Assembly: GCA_037137535.1 (NCBI GenBank)
Contig: JBAXKC010000013.1
Span: 1 to 62,066 of the forward strand
Length of the DNA: 62,066 nucleotides
Direction: 5' to 3'
Origin: a bacterium
Lineage (GTDB): Bacteria > Cyanobacteriota > Vampirovibrionia > Gastranaerophilales > JBAXKC01
Shown here: one piece after another, positions 1-12,000 of the stretch
Numbering within the stretch: position 1 is the stretch's first letter
How the letters are laid out: every line of letters starts with the position of its first letter
Position numbers: made by a program

Positions 1-3000
1 TATTGTGTAAATTTAATTTCTATCTGAATCAGGAAAGTTTGTTAAGAACCCGTTTGTTATTACATCTCAACATTTCTCATCATATCTTTAAGAGTATTTA
101 TGGTTAAATCCATATTTACAGAGTCTTTAATTGTCTGTTGAAGAAATGCGTTTACTTCTGGTATTAATTGAATTGAAAGGTCAAGTTTAGGGTTACTTCC
201 TGCTTGATACATACCTACATCAATCAAATCTTTGTTTTCTCTATACATAGAGAGAATTTTCCTCATCTTTGCCGCAGCTTGAATATGTTCTTTATCGCAA
301 ATTTCGGTAAATAGCCTGCTTATGCTTCCAAGAACGTCAATAGCTGGATAATGATTCATTTCAGCTACTTTTCTTGATAGGAATATGTGTCCGTCAACAA
401 TACCTCTTACTGTATCAACAACAGGGTCATTTACATCTCCACCTTCCATAAGAACGGTATATAATGCTGTTATTGAACCAAGTGGACTGGTTCCTGTTCT
501 TTCTAAAACTTTTTGCAGCCATGAGAAAATTGATGGAGGGTAACCTTTCATTGTTGGCGGTTCTCCGATGGAAAGACCAACTTCTCTTCCTGCCATTGCA
601 CATCTGGTAACGGTATCAGTCATAAGAAAAACTTTTTTGCCTTGATCCCTGAAGTATTCGCATACAGCAGTAGCAGTTTGTAAAGCCTTCATCCTGATTA
701 GGGGAGGTTGGTCACCTGTTGAGCAGACAAGAACAGACTTTGCCATACCAGCAGGGCCTAAACTGTTTTCTACAAACTCTTTTACTTCTCTTCCACGCTC
801 TCCGATTAGTGCCATTACGTTTACATCTGCTTCTGACTCTCTGGCAATCATACCTAACATGGTACTCTTACCGACACCACTTCCTGCAAATAGTCCCATA
901 CGCTGACCAGGACCCATTGTTAGTAATGAGTCTATTGCTCTTACTCCGGTAGAAAATTTGCCATGAATGATAGGACGACTGAAAGGATCTGGTGGATTTG
1001 CTTCTACTGAAACATATTGAGCATTTATAGGGTTTAATGGTTTTCCGTCTAATGGTTCGCCTAGAGGGCTTATTAATCGTCCTAAAAGAAAATCACCTAC
1101 GGGTATAGTAATAGCGTTATTTGTAGTTGTAACCCAACTCCCCTGACAAATTCCTGCTCCGTCATATAATAAAAGCATTTGAGCCGCATCACCTTTGAAT
1201 GCAACTACTTCGGCAGGTTTTGGAATTCCTCCTGCTGCTTCAATAAAGCATAAATCGCCTATTTTAAGCCCAGGTAATTGAGCTTCAACTGTTAAACCCA
1301 ATAATTTGGTTACTCTACCTTTGTATTTGTATAGCGGAGTTGAGTTTAGAATTTCTAAACTCTTATTTTGAATATATAGAAGCGTTTGTTCTCTGTCCTG
1401 TTCGAACATATTTTTTCTCCAAAGGTTCTTCTAGTCAGGTTTTAGTTAGTAACCATAATTGTCCGAGTATTCGTTATCGCCGATAGTATCAACTGCTTCT
1501 ACTCTTATATCGGTTATAAGTTCACTATATGAAATAACAACAACTGTCGGGATGTGTCTTTCAAGCAATTGATATAATGGTAGTCTTATTCTTGGTGAGC
1601 ATAAAGTTACAGGCTGTTTTCCAAGGCTTTGATTTGCTCTTATAAGTGTTGATGCTGTTGATTCAATTAGTTCCTGTACTTGCATAGGATTTAATAGGAA
1701 CATAGTGCCAAGTTCTGTTCTCTGACAAGAATCATCAAGTGTTTTTTCCCATTCAGAGGATAAAGTAACCGCGTAAAGAATCTTATCTTCTGTTGCATTA
1801 CTAAGGCATATCTGTCTGCCAAGAGCGGCTCTAAGTCTTTCTGACAGAATATCAGGCTCTTTAGAGAATCTTGCAAAGTCACAAAGTCTTTCAAATATGA
1901 AGATAATATCTTTGATGGAAATTTTCTCTCTGATAAGGTTAACAAAGATTTTTCTAAGATCGCTGGTAGAAATAATGGCGGGAACAAGGTCGTTAACAAG
2001 CGTTGGATCTTGACTTTTGACAAGTTCCATAAGTTTGAGAACGTCTGTTTTTGTCATTACTTCATCTACATATTTACGGACACAATCTTGAAGGTGAGTA
2101 ATAATAACATCCGTAGGATCATCTTGAGTTAAGTTATCGTTAGCATCAATTTCATTTGGTGCAAGCCAGTATGCTTGAGTTTGGAAGGTAGGGTTTACTC
2201 CGATAATCATATCAGCAGGAACCTGCTTACCTGTCGCATCCCATTGGTCTGCATTAACCATAATTCTTCCAGGGTAAACTAACCCAGTTGCAACTGGGTT
2301 TCCTCTTATTGACACAAGATATTCGTTTTCATCAAGGGCGGTACTGTCCATAATTCGGATGTTTGGAATGATAAAGCCCAGTTCATCCGTCATTCTTTGT
2401 CGTAAAGCCGCAATTTTAGCCAATAATTGACCTTCTTGTTCGGGATCGGCTATTCTTAATAAGCCCGTACCAACTTGTAAACTTAAAATATCTACACCAA
2501 GACGCTCATACATTCTGTTTGGATTAACAAGGTCTTGCATATTTTGTTTAACATTTTCAAGTTGACCGATTTGTTGTTGTACGTCATTGGACACAAAGAC
2601 AGTAAAGGCTCCAAATCCTAAAGCAACTGCCATTAATAAGAATGGGATACCCGGCAATCCTGTTATAAAGCTGGTACAAGCAATTAATAGTAAGAAAACA
2701 GCTGCAAATATTAAACTGTAAGGTTTTGCCATCAGCTGGGTCGAAATATCTCGACCTAAACTGGTACTTACCGATGTTGTCCTCGTCATTGTAATACCGC
2801 AGGAGATTGACATTAAAAGAGAAGGTAGTTGTTGCGATAAGCCGTCACCTATTGTTAATACCGTATATTTAGCAGCTGCTTCATCAGGGCTTAATCCATT
2901 CATTAAAACCCCAATTGCTAAGCCGCCTATAATGTTAATAATTGTAATAAGAATACCTGCAATTGTATCCCCTTTTACGAACTTCATTGCACCGTCCATA

Positions 3001-9000: not shown

Positions 9001-12000
9001 GTACTGGCTATTACGCTTCCGTTAAGTCTTAAGACATCTTGAACAAGGTCAGGTAAATTAACGTTGGACCTTTCAAGATTACCCTGTTTAAGGCATAAGT
9101 GGTCTTTTACTATATAAGGTTGCCCGGATGCCTGACAAGGAATGAATTTATTCCCTTCAATAGATTGTAAATCTTCAGGGTTTCTAAACCTTACGAGTGG
9201 AATTTTTCCTAATATTTCTGTATCTTCATCTCTGTTTTTTACACAGGAAACTACTCCATCTCCTGAAATTTTAAGTCTGTAATATTCTCCGGGAATTTTA
9301 ATTCCATCGCCGACAAGACAGCCGTCACTTGTAGTAAGATAGCCTTCATTACTTAATTTGAAGGCTCCGTCTCTTGTGTATGAAACCTGTCCGTCTTTAC
9401 CTGTTACAGGAATATAGCCGGGGCCATCTACTGCAATATCAAGCGGTTGATTTGTAGCCATAAGAACACCCTGTTTTTGATTTGTTCTTATAGTTCCGTC
9501 AATTCTACCGTAGCCTGTCATGTAGTTTTCAAATCTTTGTGCTTTAAAGGCAACAGTATTGTAGTTAGCAGCACTTGTTGTAGTGTATGCCAAAGAGTCA
9601 AACATTTTATCTGCATTATTTATGGAGCGGGATATTATACCTTGTAATGTTTCCATTATTCACCTATATATTTCTGTTAACTTCTGCCTAATTCCTGAAT
9701 AGTCTTTGATAATTCATCATTTTGAGTGATAAATAACTGTCTGTTAGCTTCAAAGTTTCTTCTTACAGGAACCATTCTGAAGAATTCGGTTTGTAGTCTG
9801 ACGTTAGAGTCTTCTGTATAGCCTTGCCTTATGTCAATGTCTTGAGCTACGTTCCCGTCTAGTGATACAACTGATAATCTACCGACCTCATAAGTTTGTT
9901 TTGTTTTAAAGTCAACCATTGATACTGAACCGTCTTTGTTGAATTTTACTTGATCAAGATCTTCAGGAATTTTATTGAATTTCATAGGTTTCCCGCCGAA
10001 TGATAAAATTCTAAAACCTTCTTGCGTCAGTAAATGACCGTCTTTGTCTATTTTAAACCTGCCATCTCTTGTGAGTTTTACCCCTTGAGGTGTCAAGTAT
10101 TGAAAATAACCCTCATTTGCTATTGATAAGTCTAAAGGATTACCTGTTAATCTTATTCGCCCTACGCTTTTGTCAGTTGTTTTTGAGAGTGCATGAACTC
10201 CTGCTATTTCTGCAAATGAAGAAATAACGGCTTCTTTACGCTGGTATCCAACTTTGTTAAAGCCTATTACATTTTCATTTATGTTATTTAACAGTTCGGT
10301 CTGCATATACATTCCTTGTAGAGATGTGCATATACCGTTTCCGTTTAAGTTTATTTCGCCAAATAGTCTCATGCTTGCTCTCCGTTTTAGTTGTATTTCG
10401 ACTTTAAAAAAAGGTCTATTAATACACCTATAATCTTAATTTTTTAAGAGAATTTAGTAACCATTTATTTGAATGATTCTTTTGTTGAGTAACAGTTAAA
10501 TGTAGATTTTAAATTTTTGTTTTGCGATTTTCCAGTAATGATATTTTTTCATCGAGGGCAAATAATGCTTTAATAACTGTAAATGTAGCCGTAAGTACAT
10601 CACATGCTGGCGAAAGAATCTGTTTAATATGTATTTCTCTTTTGTCGTTTCTTTTTATTTGTAGTTCATTAAAATTTGTTTCTATTTTTTGCAGATGCGC
10701 AACATTTTTCACTTTTTCTAAAAGAATTTCTACATGATTTTGAGTTTCTTTTTCCTTAAAGTCATTTTCTATAACGCATTCTAACCCTCCTGCTTTTTTA
10801 TATACATAAATTTTAAATCTTCCGAGCTGTTCTGTTGTCATATATGCAAGTAAAGCAAGGTCTTTAGATTTTTCAGCAGGTATTTCTTCTTCAAATTCGC
10901 TTAAAATTTGAGGACTTTGTAAGGGCGCTGTAAATGGAATATAAAGTGGAATAATGTTATTTAAAAATTGATTTAACGGTATGTTATTTTCAGGTGTTAT
11001 CTTTTTAAGCAGAGAGACTAGTTCTTTTAATTGTGAAAGATTTTGAAAATTCTCGGGAGATGGAGAGGTTAATTTTAAAAGTTTACTTAGTGCTTCTTTA
11101 GAATTTGTTTGAAGTAATGAAATAAGTGATTTTATGTCAACTTCTGCACCTTGTGAAATTAATTTGCTTAATGTTTTAGCATCTTTAGCTTCGGGAAAAG
11201 ACCAGTTCATTAGATCCATCCACTCTTTGGGCAATTTTAGCAACTCTTTTATCAGCAGTAGTTGTTGATATAAGTTTATGTTGTTAAATTTCACCTCCTT
11301 ATTGAAATTAAAGTTTTCATTTAGGTATGTTTTAGGCGACATATTCGTTTGCGGTTGGCTTTCGGGCGCAGACTTCTCTTCAGTATTTGCTTGAATACTA
11401 ATATTTTTAACGAATGAAATTATATTTAACGGATTAATATTCACTTTCGCCCATCTTTCCCGCTATTTGTAATTGATTATAATGATTATAACTTTCAAGT
11501 CTAATTTTATTAACCATTGTAAAGTTTATTTTGTATTTGAATTTATTTTATTTTCGTTTTACGGTTTGTATTTTTTTATAAAATATTATAATTTATTGAC
11601 TTTGTTATTTATTGTAATTATTGAGATACAGGACTTATTTATTTTTTATTGAATTACTATATGTTACATTTCTTAATTTTGAAAATACATCAAATACTGT
11701 GTTTACAAAGTTGAAAGTATCGTGATTGTTATACTTCTAATTTTTAAATAAAAAATCAGTTAAATTTTAATAAAACTATATTGTGTAAAAAATAAAAAAC
11801 TGTTACTATACTATTAATTGGTCATTCATTTGTTTAGCAAAAAGTGTTCAATTCGGGTAAGAGGTTAACTTTTAAGTTTTCCTTTATTTTTATCTCAAAG
11901 AATAAACAGAGAGACCTGCGGGATAATTTTTTTCGGGAAGGATGTTAAGAGTAAGCGATGGGTATGAGCTTCAACAAGTTTGGCAAAATGTGCGTTATAA

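Follow-up and report, generated by a model that had tools for sequence, protein, structure and literature searches.

A second flagellar-type gene set

The window, a stretch of 62,066 nucleotides from contig JBAXKC010000013.1, belongs to a Melainabacteria/Vampirovibrionia MAG (G000) that also carries an apparently complete flagellum, here termed set A. A single operon of 12 genes occupies positions 60–11444 on the minus strand and continues off the contig start past fliI. A preliminary description had placed a second export set (set B) here and on three further contigs (C7, C21 and C9); all 12 ORFs were found in place and on this strand, those Pfam matches that were obtained being far beyond chance, and Pfam searches of the other loci returned the content claimed.

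The first gene, ORF311 (10509–11444), had no Pfam or NCBIfam match and was seen in 3 of 80 related loci; in a related genome (G001) the same place holds a gene of comparable length (336 aa). In the protein atlas, Melainabacteria clusters ranked first, followed by Bacillota clusters with DUF6240 or Flg_hook (score 0.94), a lead only, by which ORF311 is a candidate FliK/Flg_hook- or DUF6240-like protein. Rod genes follow. The FlgF-like rod protein (9677–10372, 231 aa) matched LlgE_F_G_D1 (2e-12) and Flg_bbr_C (1.1e-5) in Pfam and scored 109.8 bits against NCBIfam flgF, below the cut-off of 178.5. The FlgG-like distal rod protein (8943–9656, 237 aa; LlgE_F_G_D1, 2.7e-18) fell short of flgG (127 bits, cut-off 252.75) and passed the NCBIfam FlgEFG subfamily model (124.8 bits, cut-off 70.25). 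The FlgB-like proximal rod protein (8577–8924, 115 aa) lay just under the cut-off for Flg_bb_rod (20.6 bits, cut-off 20.7) and below that for NCBIfam FlgB (2.8e-13, 50.2 bits, cut-off 59.05), while FlgC (8129–8572, 147 aa; Flg_bbr_C, 3.2e-9) narrowly exceeded its NCBIfam cut-off (102.4 bits, cut-off 102.1). A lytic transglycosylase (7461–8117, 218 aa; SLT, 1.2e-32), which presumably would open peptidoglycan for the rod, had the flagellar-assembly lytic transglycosylase as its best NCBIfam model (1.3e-25, under its cut-off) and adjoined fliE in 49 of the 80 related loci. FliE, the export gate/rod adaptor (7122–7454, 110 aa), was matched by both Pfam (8e-17) and NCBIfam (56.3 bits, cut-off 30).

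The FliF-type MS-ring protein (5278–6924, 548 aa) matched YscJ_FliF (8e-30) and YscJ_FliF_C (3.7e-12). Its cytoplasmic C-terminal tail, kept in six orthologues from four families, ends in a KSWIE motif, and no tblastn match was found between the FliF proteins of the two sets. Next, in the fliG position, lies ORF313 (4327–5268), followed by the ATPase stator/regulator FliH (3569–4306, 245 aa; 4.3e-21), the export-gate ring protein FlhA (1446–3560, 704 aa; FHIPEP, 5.3e-212) and the export ATPase FliI (60–1409, 449 aa; ATP-synt_ab, 2e-80; T3SS_ATPase_C, 3.3e-25), the last two being of the B type. Flagellar NCBIfam models outscored the SctV and SctN models on FlhA and FliI, with 670 bits for FlhA vs 592 bits for SctV on the former, both under their cut-offs. 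FlgC and FliE passed their NCBIfam cut-offs, FliF, FlgB, FlgF and FlgG did not, and set B missed most equivalog cut-offs.

The C7 locus encodes a FliMN_C protein, FliO, FliP, FliQ and FliR; C21 encodes FlhB, which carries NPIH where NPTH is usual, with a sigma factor beside it; and C9 encodes FliJ, a FliK-like protein (26–29 bits, cut-off 29.8) and a 277-aa hook-like protein bearing an FlgE/F/G D1 domain. Counterparts of the three C9 genes follow fliI in G001 and in 1 of the 80 loci. Of the flagellar-type gate and ATPase complex of set B, FHIPEP, FliP, FliQ, FliR, FlhB, FliH, FliI and FliJ were all detected. The C7 FliMN_C protein (410 aa) has a predicted fold like that of full-length FliM, with a CheC-like middle domain and a C-terminal SpoA domain, in a model of moderate confidence only (mean pLDDT 62.6). 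Its best Foldseek matches were Salmonella FliM (8umd_C, E 3e-8) and the Helicobacter pylori FliM middle domain (4gc8, TM 0.58 by target). All 13 orthologues carried FliMN_C, and one of them was matched by the FliM Pfam model, at 0.054. No secretin SctC, SctD ring, SctF needle or translocon was encoded in the four set-B loci, as judged by Pfam.

Paralogy with the flagellum and distribution across the class

The counts and identities given in the preliminary description were reproduced. Of six FHIPEP matches in the genome, two are full length; the single FliG_C match lies on contig C36 beside set-A genes. The two sets share 47 % identity in FliP, 26 % in FliR, 37 % in FlhA, 51 % in FliI and 34 % in FlhB, while set B shares 66–68 % in FliP and 45–49 % in FliR with an aflagellate family of relatives. 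A tree of all 27 full-length FlhA proteins from 17 genomes with eight references placed B-type and single copies in one clade of 17 (SH-aLRT 100), which included all seven single copies (families f2, f7 and f8); A-type copies grouped with reference flagellar FlhA. The FliI tree (27 rows) split 10 vs 17 with support 100, again with seven of seven single copies on the side of set B. For f7 and f8 the assignment rests on these trees, because A and B cannot be told apart there by pairwise identity (FliI, 53 % vs 54 %). This indicates orthology between set B and the only set of the aflagellate relatives, as had been claimed.

In a larger tree of 175 rows, FlhA of set B branched off as a separate clade that excluded the 137 other rows of the flagellar side. 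The branch leading to four SctV references (support 100, as in the smaller tree) again left it with the flagellar proteins. By this placement and the higher score of the FlhA model, the gate protein is not of the SctV type. Multiple FlhA_C-only paralogues derive from B-type FlhA. That set B is flagellum-derived, as proposed earlier, is likely; the trees are compatible with a duplicate of set A in the class ancestor as well as with an older paralogue, and do not decide between them. Vertical inheritance from a time at least as early as the origin of the class Vampirovibrionia (Melainabacteria) forms part of the overall reading set out below, which as a whole we hold to be reasonably probable.

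Presence was surveyed in one sample of 201 genomes of the class, in which f2 apparently corresponds to f3 of the preliminary description. FliG_C was found in 0 of 48 f2 genomes, 0 of 9 f7 genomes (over the cut-off) and 0 of 12 f8 genomes vs 28 of 30 in f5, 19 of 19 in f6 and 24 of 25 in f10. FliF was nevertheless present in 48 of 48, 8 of 9 and 10 of 12 genomes of f2, f7 and f8, mostly as one match per genome. By our reading, 77 of 80 FliG-bearing genomes had two or more FliF; the three exceptions (G117 and G179 with one, G121 with none) are all fragmented. Among genomes with set B only, FliP, FliI and the hook-like protein (57–59 % identity in f2) were each found in five of five and one FliM-like ORF in each of seven; the FliJ, FliK-like and hook-like trio was found in f2 and f8. 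Set B is found throughout the class, and its gene order is conserved: across 80 species-level loci, ORF313 was kept in 80, FliH in 78, FliF in 76, FlhA in 75 and FliE in 67.

Di Rienzi 2013 (PMC3787301) took the flagellar subset of MEL.A1 as a sign of ongoing genome reduction, and the first Melainabacteria genome papers interpreted such genes as the decaying remnant of a flagellum. The total loss seen in f4 (0 of 47) and f9 (0 of 2) would fit this. However, the genes that are kept form a separate paralogous clade, found beside the flagellum in other families, and are not the flagellum's own copies; the same set persists in three families, including every f2 genome; and the ORFs are unbroken, the matches listed being free of internal stops, with gene order kept in the 80 loci. 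Within the aflagellate family, dN/dS of ORF313 could be computed for 36 of 45 pairs and was 0.03–0.28 in each, rough values with dS of at least 0.99 throughout, indicating purifying selection. Decay is therefore strongly disfavoured and very improbable, in agreement with the preliminary description, which had held set B to be conserved. The RNA-library contigs that it reported on set-B genes were also confirmed: 26 contigs of at least 99 % identity, from one sample sequenced in three metatranscriptome runs, lie on fliI, flhA, ORF313/fliF, fliE, flgB/C and flgF/G. They derive from RNA libraries and may reflect transcription.

An accessory export or assembly device for the true flagellum, dedicated for example to exporting certain parts or regulators of the flagellum, would account for the coexistence of both sets in most families of the class. 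It is hardly credible given that set B persists in f2, f7 and f8, where no flagellum exists.

A second motile flagellum, comparable to lateral or dual systems, would rely on set A for FliG, stators, rings and filament. In the genome studied, the one FliG_C protein, the two MotB-plug proteins, FlgI and the products of seven flagellin-family genes might in principle be shared, and set B, with its own sigma factor adjoining flhB, may there borrow set-A parts; both MotB-plug copies lie away from the set-B loci. Yet set B is under selection in genomes that have nothing of the kind to lend: in addition to the missing FliG_C of f2, Flagellin_N occurred in 0 of 7 B-only genomes vs 10 of 10 two-set genomes, and FlgI and MotB_plug each in 0 of 5, in line with the smaller counts of the preliminary description. 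With ORF313 filling the FliG slot and set-B FliF having its own conserved tail, a motile role is quite unlikely.

The protein in the fliG position

ORF313 comprises a lineage-specific helical N-domain (residues 1–165) and a weakly FliG_N/FliG_M-like C-domain (approximately residues 172–313), with no FliG_C. It had no Pfam match above cut-off, and those of its 88 homologues with informative names were from Melainabacteria or Gastranaerophilales. Among 40 family members, FliG_N was matched in 10 (best 1.3e-5), FliG_M in 11 (best 2.3e-4) and FliG_C in 2 (E 0.039). The best PDB sequence match of the family profile was Aquifex FliG (3hjl, E 0.0077), and hhalign against an alignment of nine FliG sequences gave a probability of 5 % (E 0.0076, 31 columns). 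Searches with the whole AF2 model (pLDDT 86) gave nothing at E≤0.001 in Foldseek. In VIA, the model aligned with 5wuj_B, FliG_N bound to FliF, over 71 residues (Z 6.7, rmsd 4.2), its Z-scores of 6.7–6.9 being within the range common for helical proteins. The likeness to FliG is weak. By domain content ORF313 is not a FliG family member and would contain at most one FliG_N/M-like domain. With this protein as query, no match was obtained in f5, f7 or f8, and in f6 and f10 the slot is filled by different proteins of 359–432 aa that have only the C-domain in common with it.

A complex predicted from our own alignments between ORF313 and residues 478–548 of set-B FliF scored 0.43 (runs 0.40, 0.43 and 0.47) vs 0.00 for the best of three controls, with a partner pLDDT of at least 59 and at least 62 % of contacts agreeing between runs. 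In calibration the mark was met by 116 of 157 solved complexes vs 2 of 215 mismatches; only 18 of the 157 met it with scores ≤0.60, as did both passing mismatches. Because FliF–FliG complexes have been solved, the pass may reflect likeness to them, and the models lend weak support to a contact. The earlier characterization of set B as lacking a rotor and FliG thus stood in that no FliG_C, stator, P ring or filament was found, and needs amendment in that set B has a FliM-like protein and, in the FliG slot, a protein with a weakly FliG_N/M-like domain.

A probable non-rotating basal body and its relatives

We consider it reasonably probable that set B encodes a second type III machine of the flagellar type, a non-rotating basal body with a rod and a short hook-like tip. 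FliF would form its MS ring, FliOPQR, FlhB and FlhA its gate, and FliH, FliI and FliJ its ATPase complex, with the FliM-like protein as a cytoplasmic part. The rod would consist of FliE, FlgB, FlgC and the FlgF- and FlgG-like proteins, served by its own peptidoglycan lytic enzyme, and the distal end of the short 277-aa hook-like subunit, with the FliK-like protein as its ruler. The C-domain of ORF313 would hold the FliF tail as FliG_N does, and its new N-domain would replace the torque-generating part. With no FliG_C in set B, and no stator, P ring or flagellin in B-only genomes, such a machine could not turn by the known mechanism or bear a filament. It would build a rod that spans the wall without rotating and ends in a hook-like stub, and through its gate would pass the machine's own axial parts at the least, and probably other proteins bound for the periplasm or farther out. 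Set B yielded no identified substrate, secretion signal, chaperone or outer-membrane conduit, so export beyond self-assembly can only be inferred. What the data themselves show is the composition of set B, its paralogy and orthology, its conservation under purifying selection and its independence from set A.

The gate might instead serve only to build a periplasmic or surface rod for envelope anchoring, cell–cell or cell–host contact, or as a membrane-nanotube platform, a real though lesser possibility. Those exported parts that are conserved are axial proteins, neither an effector nor a pore in the outer membrane was identified, and Kaplan 2022 (PMC9380563) mentions flagellar T3SS-related structures of unknown function and reported involvement in nanotubes. 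The multiple FlhA_C-only paralogues suggest elaborate substrate handling and not a fixed structure. There is no direct counter-evidence to such a contact organelle, which coincides with the basal-body reading up to the last step.

No paper describing the two-set structure was found in the literature searched. The basal-body reading would make set B an old second flagellar core, devoid of the known motor and filament parts and kept in species that lost the true flagellum, and because it is kept even there it probably has a different job.

Like the bacterial flagellum, set B has FliOPQR/FlhB/FlhA, FliH/I/J, FliF, FliE, the FlgB/C/F/G rod, an FlgE-like D1 domain and FliK-like and FliM-like proteins, and its operon follows the order flgB-flgC...fliE-fliF-[fliG slot]-fliH. 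It differs in having ORF313 in place of FliG and its torque domain, in the missing MotB-plug stator, FlgI P ring and flagellin of B-only genomes, and in a separate FlhA clade with most NCBIfam equivalog cut-offs missed. Injectisomes are likewise type III machines without motility parts, and their FliG position is held by the non-torque adaptor SctK, to which ORF313 may be analogous; set B, however, retains the rod, hook and FliE proteins of flagella and has a two-TM FliF where injectisomes have SctJ/SctD. Non-motile insect endosymbionts such as Buchnera carry filament-less flagellar basal bodies for which protein export has been proposed. Those are the only flagellar genes left to the organism after reduction, whereas set B is a distinct paralogue already present beside the flagellum. 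Dual flagellar systems (polar and lateral, Flag-2) also place two paralogous sets in one genome, each with its own FliG, stators and flagellin and driving motility; set B has none of these of its own and does not drive motility. For Myxococcales, Abby and Rocha 2012 (PMC3459982) propose an incomplete NF-T3SS without FlgBCDEK, FliE and FliG as an intermediate of flagellum-to-injectisome exaptation; the role argued for it is either protein translocation or the assembly of a structure in the periplasm or outside the cell. As described there, that system resembles set B in being a type III system without motility essentials or a secretin. Set B differs from it in possessing FlgB, FlgC, FliE, FlgF/G-like and hook-like proteins, in belonging to a different lineage and phylum, and in coexisting with a flagellum.

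Gene content of the two flagellar-type sets

The genome under study (2.95 Mb, 81 contigs) contained six matches to FHIPEP, two of them full-length (879 and 706 bits). The window, which spans all of contig C13, carries 12 tightly packed ORFs on the minus strand from 11444 to 60. Ten of these were named by Pfam and NCBIfam, namely FlgF-like (9677–10372), FlgG-like (8943–9656), FlgB (8577–8924), FlgC (8129–8572), an SLT lytic transglycosylase (7461–8117), FliE (7122–7454), FliF (5278–6924), FliH (3569–4306), FlhA (1446–3560; FHIPEP 5.3e-212) and FliI (60–1409). The other two, ORF311 (311 aa, 10509–11444) and ORF313 (313 aa, 4327–5268), belong to no family, and ORF313 occupies the exact place that fliG has in ordinary fliE-fliF-fliG-fliH operons. 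The remainder of this set (set B) lies on C7 (a 410-aa FliMN_C protein, FliO, FliP, a long FliQ and FliR), C21 (FlhB and a sigma factor) and C9 (FliJ, a FliK-like protein and a 277-aa hook-like protein with a FlgE/F/G D1 domain). The operon is truncated by the start of C13. In a relative (G001), as in one related locus out of 80, the fliJ, fliK-like and hook-like genes directly follow fliI; C9 is therefore most likely the continuation of C13. An RNA-library contig (run X1, 2986 nt) matched window positions 1–1339 without mismatch, extended 1647 nt past the C13 start and would join C13 to the next contig, most likely the fliJ locus on C9.

The single FliG_C match in the genome lies on C36, adjoining a second FliF, FliH and FliI and rod genes. 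This ordinary flagellum (set A) also comprises seven Flagellin_N matches, FlgI, FliM and FliN (both on C1) and two MotB-plug proteins, and looks complete for the parts searched (Flagellin_N, FlgI, FliM, FliN and MotB-plug). When set-B proteins were used as tblastn queries against the genome, identity to set A was 37 % for FlhA, 51 % for FliI, 47 % for FliP, 26 % for FliR, 34 % for FlhB, 30 % for FlgC, 24 % for FliH and 27 % for FliE. No paralogue was detected by tblastn for the set-B FliF (FliF_B), the FliMN_C protein, FliO, FliJ, the FliK-like protein or ORF311. The two full-length FHIPEP matches, together with the second FliF/FliH/FliI and rod genes beside FliG_C on C36, bear out the preliminary description of two paralogous sets; the contents it gave for the C7, C21 and C9 loci matched on inspection, and its observation was confirmed overall.

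Several set-B proteins have individual peculiarities. The leads for ORF311 in a protein atlas were Bacillota FliK/Flg_hook and DUF6240 clusters (score 0.94), its own atlas model being of low confidence, and it may be a candidate second ruler-like protein. FliQ_B (locus record L008:8705–9199, on C7) is 164 aa long, with a C-terminal extension of ~75 aa that is kept in family f2. The usual FlhB self-cleavage motif is NPTH; FlhB_B (L009:6279–7352, on C21) has NPIH. A sigma factor with regions 3–4 (L009:7384–8070) lies directly 3' of flhB_B and is 43 % identical to another at C1:313270–313887, and may thus be a FliA-like regulator dedicated to set B. A 141-aa T2SS-T3SS_pil_N protein encoded between fliQ and fliR was considered as a periplasmic or outer-membrane part and rejected as a core component, because tblastn gave no match beside fliQ/fliR in aflagellate relatives with a single set. 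Scans of window positions 1–12400 for sigma-70 promoters (48 sites vs 43.2±7.0 expected) and terminators (12 vs 8.0±3.2 expected) were at chance level. Beyond the operon, upstream, divergent or further on, C13 encodes a STAS-domain protein (11958–12317), an acyltransferase_3 (12351–13385), an OprB-family porin (13465–14775) and ClpB (15191–17806), for which no link to set B was seen.

Orthology, distribution and age of set B

Phylogenetic trees were reconstructed from all 27 full-length FHIPEP matches in a panel of this genome and 16 others from nine families of the class Vampirovibrionia, excluding 11 C-terminal-only matches; as references, plasmid records supplied four sequences each of flagellar FlhA and SctV (IQ-TREE, LG+G4, quick search). 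The ten higher-scoring copies formed one clade (support 98) within a clade containing the reference FlhA (99). The ten lower-scoring copies and all seven single copies (three from f2, two each from f7 and f8) formed another (100), and SctV was separate (100). Families branched in the B clade in an order mirroring that of the A clade, the pattern expected if both sets were inherited vertically. A tree of 27 FliI sequences from the same panel was split 10 vs 17 (support 100), with one copy of each two-set genome per side and all seven single copies alongside the set-B FliI of this genome. Names A and B were assigned to relatives after the first tree was seen. Typing of f7 and f8 needed the trees, since pairwise FliI identity (53 % vs 54 %) could not separate the sets. 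With seven of seven single copies on the B side in both trees, the single set of aflagellate relatives is orthologous to set B, as had been proposed.

When FlhA_B was compared by phmmer with 1.84 billion cluster representatives, one near match (64 % identity) was followed by full-length matches at no more than 41 %. A FastTree was built from 175 rows, made up of the 35 used before and of 140 representatives picked by length among the best 150. Its B clade contained only two representatives and stood (support 100) next to a clade in which set A grouped with the rest of the flagellar side, 137 rows in all. Sets A and B were each monophyletic (100) in a 67-row IQ-TREE with 32 hand-picked representatives. 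A single clade of A and B was not rejected by an AU test (log-likelihood difference 4.8, P=0.419), and a set B predating every flagellar FlhA in the sample was therefore not established. Judged from these sequences, set B is at least as old as the class, and would be compatible both with a fast-evolving duplicate of set A and with an older paralogue.

FliG_C, FliF (PF01514) and ORF313 were each sought in one sample of 201 Vampirovibrionia genomes. FliG_C was found in 2/2 genomes of f3, 28/30 of f5, 19/19 of f6, 24/25 of f10, 1/1 of f11 and 5/5 of f12, all families with two FliF matches per genome. It was absent from f2 (0/48), f8 (0/12), f4 (0/47) and f9 (0/2) and matched in one of nine f7 genomes (20.4 bits, below the cut-off, in a 1115-aa ORF). 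FliF was present in 48/48 genomes of f2, 8/9 of f7 and 10/12 of f8, mostly as a single match, and in none of f4 (0/47) or f9 (0/2). FliG_C exceeded the cut-off in 80 genomes, of which 77, by our own reading of the table, had at least two FliF matches; the exceptions (G117 and G179 with one, G121 with none) are all fragmented or at most 93 % complete. The sample follows a simple rule: genomes with a flagellum have two sets, and those lacking one have a single set or none. Flagellin_N matches can be very numerous in relatives (34 in G016; 20 in G001, mostly in one array on its C2).

Among the aflagellate relatives with set B only, Flagellin_N was found in 0/7 genomes vs 10/10 two-set genomes, and FliMN_C in one ORF in each of the seven vs at least three matches in two-set genomes. 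In five of them (G153, G024, G006, G019 and G020), FliP, T3SS_ATPase_C and the 277-aa hook-like protein (57–59 % identity in f2) were detected in 5/5 and Flg_bbr_C in 4/5, with FlgI and MotB_plug in 0/5. The genes for FliJ, the FliK-like and the hook-like protein form an operon in f2 and f8, and in f2 a FliM-like gene is followed by those for FliO, FliP, FliQ and FliR.

Four proteins of the genome have only the cytoplasmic C-domain of FlhA (C2:107681–109057, C27:25204–26991, C34:182–1675 and C60:3193–4608). Two are soluble, one has two TM helices and follows a TPR gene, and in the remaining protein the domain is fused to the N-domain of ORF313 and two TM helices. All four scored higher against B-type FlhA (120–197 bits) than A-type (72–109 bits). 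Such proteins occurred only in f1, f2 and f3 in the 17-genome panel, and the 1.84-billion-protein library held matches of 406–651 aa to the C-half of FlhA_B only (49–59 % identity).

ORF313 and the rotor-like parts

ORF313 has 88 homologues at E≤0.001, of which the informatively named are from Melainabacteria or Gastranaerophilales. In the 201-genome sample it matched over most of its length in f2 (48/48) and f3 (2/2) and through its C-domain only in f6 (7/19), f10 (11/25) and f12 (2/5), with no match in f4, f5, f7, f8 or f9. The match sits between fliF and fliH-flhA in f10, f6 and f3. The best 80 related species-level loci are named Gastranaerophilales, Melainabacteria, Cyanobacteria, Vampirovibrio or Caenarcanum, apart from a few MAGs. 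The names of homologues and loci thus place the genome in Vampirovibrionia, among the relatives of cyanobacteria that do not photosynthesise. Around ORF313 in these 80, tblastn detected FliH in 78, FliF in 76, FlhA in 75, FliE in 67 and SLT in 49, ORF313 itself being found in all 80, and SLT-FliE-FliF-ORF313-FliH-FlhA was the commonest gene order (31/80). Six MAG records labelled 'uncultured Gammaproteobacteria' or 'Muribaculaceae' (L077, L083, L096, L120, L132 and L135) carry the Melainabacteria-specific ORF313, and their labels are probably wrong.

An AF2 model of ORF313 (40-sequence alignment, pLDDT 86) comprised two helical domains (1–165 and ~172–313). The N-domain is the best-conserved part and holds most invariant columns. 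A wide VIA search with it returned generic helical bundles only (top Z 9.8, a viral IE1 protein) and the protein atlas Melainabacteria clusters only, with no known fold assigned. The N-domain is also a repeated module, with two to five matches per f2 genome in ORFs of ~235, 315 and 600 aa (e.g. G153:C1:402351–402893, G162:C2:147716–148186 and G111:C9:81080–82708), the 600-aa form being fused to the FlhA C-domain.

The C-domain faintly resembles the N-terminal and middle parts of FliG. It aligned in VIA with 5wuj_B (Helicobacter pylori FliG_N with FliF; Z 6.7, rmsd 4.2, 71 aligned) and 8umd_B (Salmonella FliG residues 2–184; Z 6.9, rmsd 13.8, 126 aligned). The best PDB sequence match of the family profile was Aquifex FliG (3hjl, E=0.0077), and Pfam matches among 40 members were all weak (MgtE_N 21, FliG_M 11, FliG_N 10, FliG_C 2). 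Comparison of the family with nine FliGs of the class by hhalign gave a probability of 5 % over 31 columns, BLASTP of ORF313 against set-A FliG gave nothing significant, and Foldseek with the whole model gave no match at E≤0.001. FliF_B has a conserved cytoplasmic tail ending in 'KSWIE', which resembles the end through which ordinary FliF binds FliG. In structure prediction, full-length ORF313 in complex with FliF_B 478–548 scored 0.43, vs 0.00 for the best of three controls (partner pLDDT at least 59, runs agreeing in at least 62 % of contacts). In calibration the mark was reached by 116/157 solved complexes and 2/215 mismatches, scores of at most 0.60 accounting for only 18/157 of the solved complexes and both passing mismatches; the prediction used our own alignments, and similar complexes have already been solved. 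The model thus gives weak support to binding between ORF313 and the FliF_B tail. From its slot, the faint FliG likeness, the FliF_B tail and the predicted complex, ORF313 is therefore read as a FliG-position adaptor that has no torque domain and lies outside the FliG family.

Orthologues of the 410-aa protein from C7 occur in every genome of the panel. Its model (13-sequence alignment) was of moderate quality (pLDDT 62.6), with full-length Salmonella FliM (8umd_C, E=3e-8) and FliM middle domains as the best Foldseek matches, and its C-terminus matches FliN/SpoA sequences. In this FliM-like protein (L008:10294–11526; C7:24293–25525), Met residues lie just before the SpoA domain and the tail is very acidic. 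In SctQ, an internal start yields a separate SpoA product, and such a start would be a candidate feature of the FliM-like gene too. Since set B has FliF_B as well as the FliM-like protein, it has MS-ring and C-ring-like parts, and it has no torque interface, stator, P ring or filament. The earlier claim that set B has no FliG and is without rotor is accordingly right about the torque interface, but 'without rotor' does not stand, as ORF313 fills the slot and a FliM-like protein is present; the core of that interpretation, two paralogous sets of which B is conserved where no flagellum exists, is supported.

Selection, function and relation to known systems

Among ten ORF313 orthologues of the aflagellate family (Nei-Gojobori; L015 excluded), dN/dS was 0.03–0.28 in all 36 computable of 45 pairs, figures that are rough because dS was at least 0.99 everywhere. 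Set B is kept under selection where no flagellum exists. The reported RNA-library contigs in set-B genes were recovered as 26 contigs, all at least 99 % identical, from three metatranscriptome runs of one freshwater sample, covering fliI, flhA, ORF313/fliF, fliE, flgB/C and flgF/G; such libraries may include DNA, the contigs show neither strand nor level, their depth neither ranks genes nor proves transcription, and contig-free parts of the operon are uninformative.

In the available text of Melainabacteria genome papers (PMC3787301, PMC4040986, bioRxiv 10.64898/2026.04.24.720558), all flagellar genes are handled as one set. Two of them (PMC3787301, PMC4040986) interpret the partial sets of gut species as decay, and a single sentence of the third (bioRxiv 10.64898/2026.04.24.720558) suggests that these may be secretory. 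Di Rienzi 2013 (PMC3787301), in the part available, gives 13 flagellar genes common to all four genomes and ascribes the MEL.A1 subset to genome reduction; by order and content, as far as that part gives them, these 13 genes are set B. The accessible portions of Soo 2014 and 2015 infer loss of flagella and handle fliI as one monophyletic set, and those of Utami 2018 note partial sets. Full-text searches on flagellar or type III secretion genes in Melainabacteria, Gastranaerophilales and Vampirovibrionia gave no paper that describes two paralogous sets, although supplements may hold per-gene presence tables relevant to an earlier recognition of both. The view that set B is conserved and not a decaying flagellum was upheld: it is a separate, ancient paralogue, present beside the flagellum and retained where the flagellum has been lost. 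Motility prediction from these genomes changes as a result.

The set-B gene set is self-sufficient, comprising gate, ATPase, MS ring, FliM-like protein, rod, wall-lytic enzyme, ruler-like protein and short hook-like subunit. The machine would assemble inside-out, like a flagellar basal body, with a rod that would cross the peptidoglycan and carry at its end a short hook-like stub, set by the FliK-like protein. Rotation is improbable, and the gate is putatively a protein exporter. No set-B substrate or outer-membrane part was found, and a role in structure or contact alone is a serious rival to export. A bolder reading, which we hold only tentatively and consider rather unlikely as a whole, is that the flagellum was exapted a second time, independently, in the non-photosynthetic lineage that is sister to cyanobacteria, set B being the resulting non-rotating machine for protein delivery or contact. 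The lineage-specific adaptor ORF313 would here replace FliG, and the FlhA C-domain-only paralogues, some membrane-anchored and one fused to the ORF313 N-domain, would serve as extra docking platforms for substrates. If this exaptation took place, set B would be the main type III system of Gastranaerophilales, an order found in animal and human guts according to the available parts of published papers, and a present-day counterpart of the step with which the evolution of injectisomes is hypothesised to have begun.

Whatever its role, set B is a natural flagellar core without torque parts that nevertheless has rod and hook-like parts, and it brings new parts with testable roles (the ORF313 family and the FlhA C-domain-only proteins). 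Intermediates of this kind have been invoked to explain how injectisomes arose. Nearest in concept is the intermediate without motility proposed by Abby and Rocha 2012 (PMC3459982), which, as set out in the available part of that paper, is without the rod proteins that set B retains.
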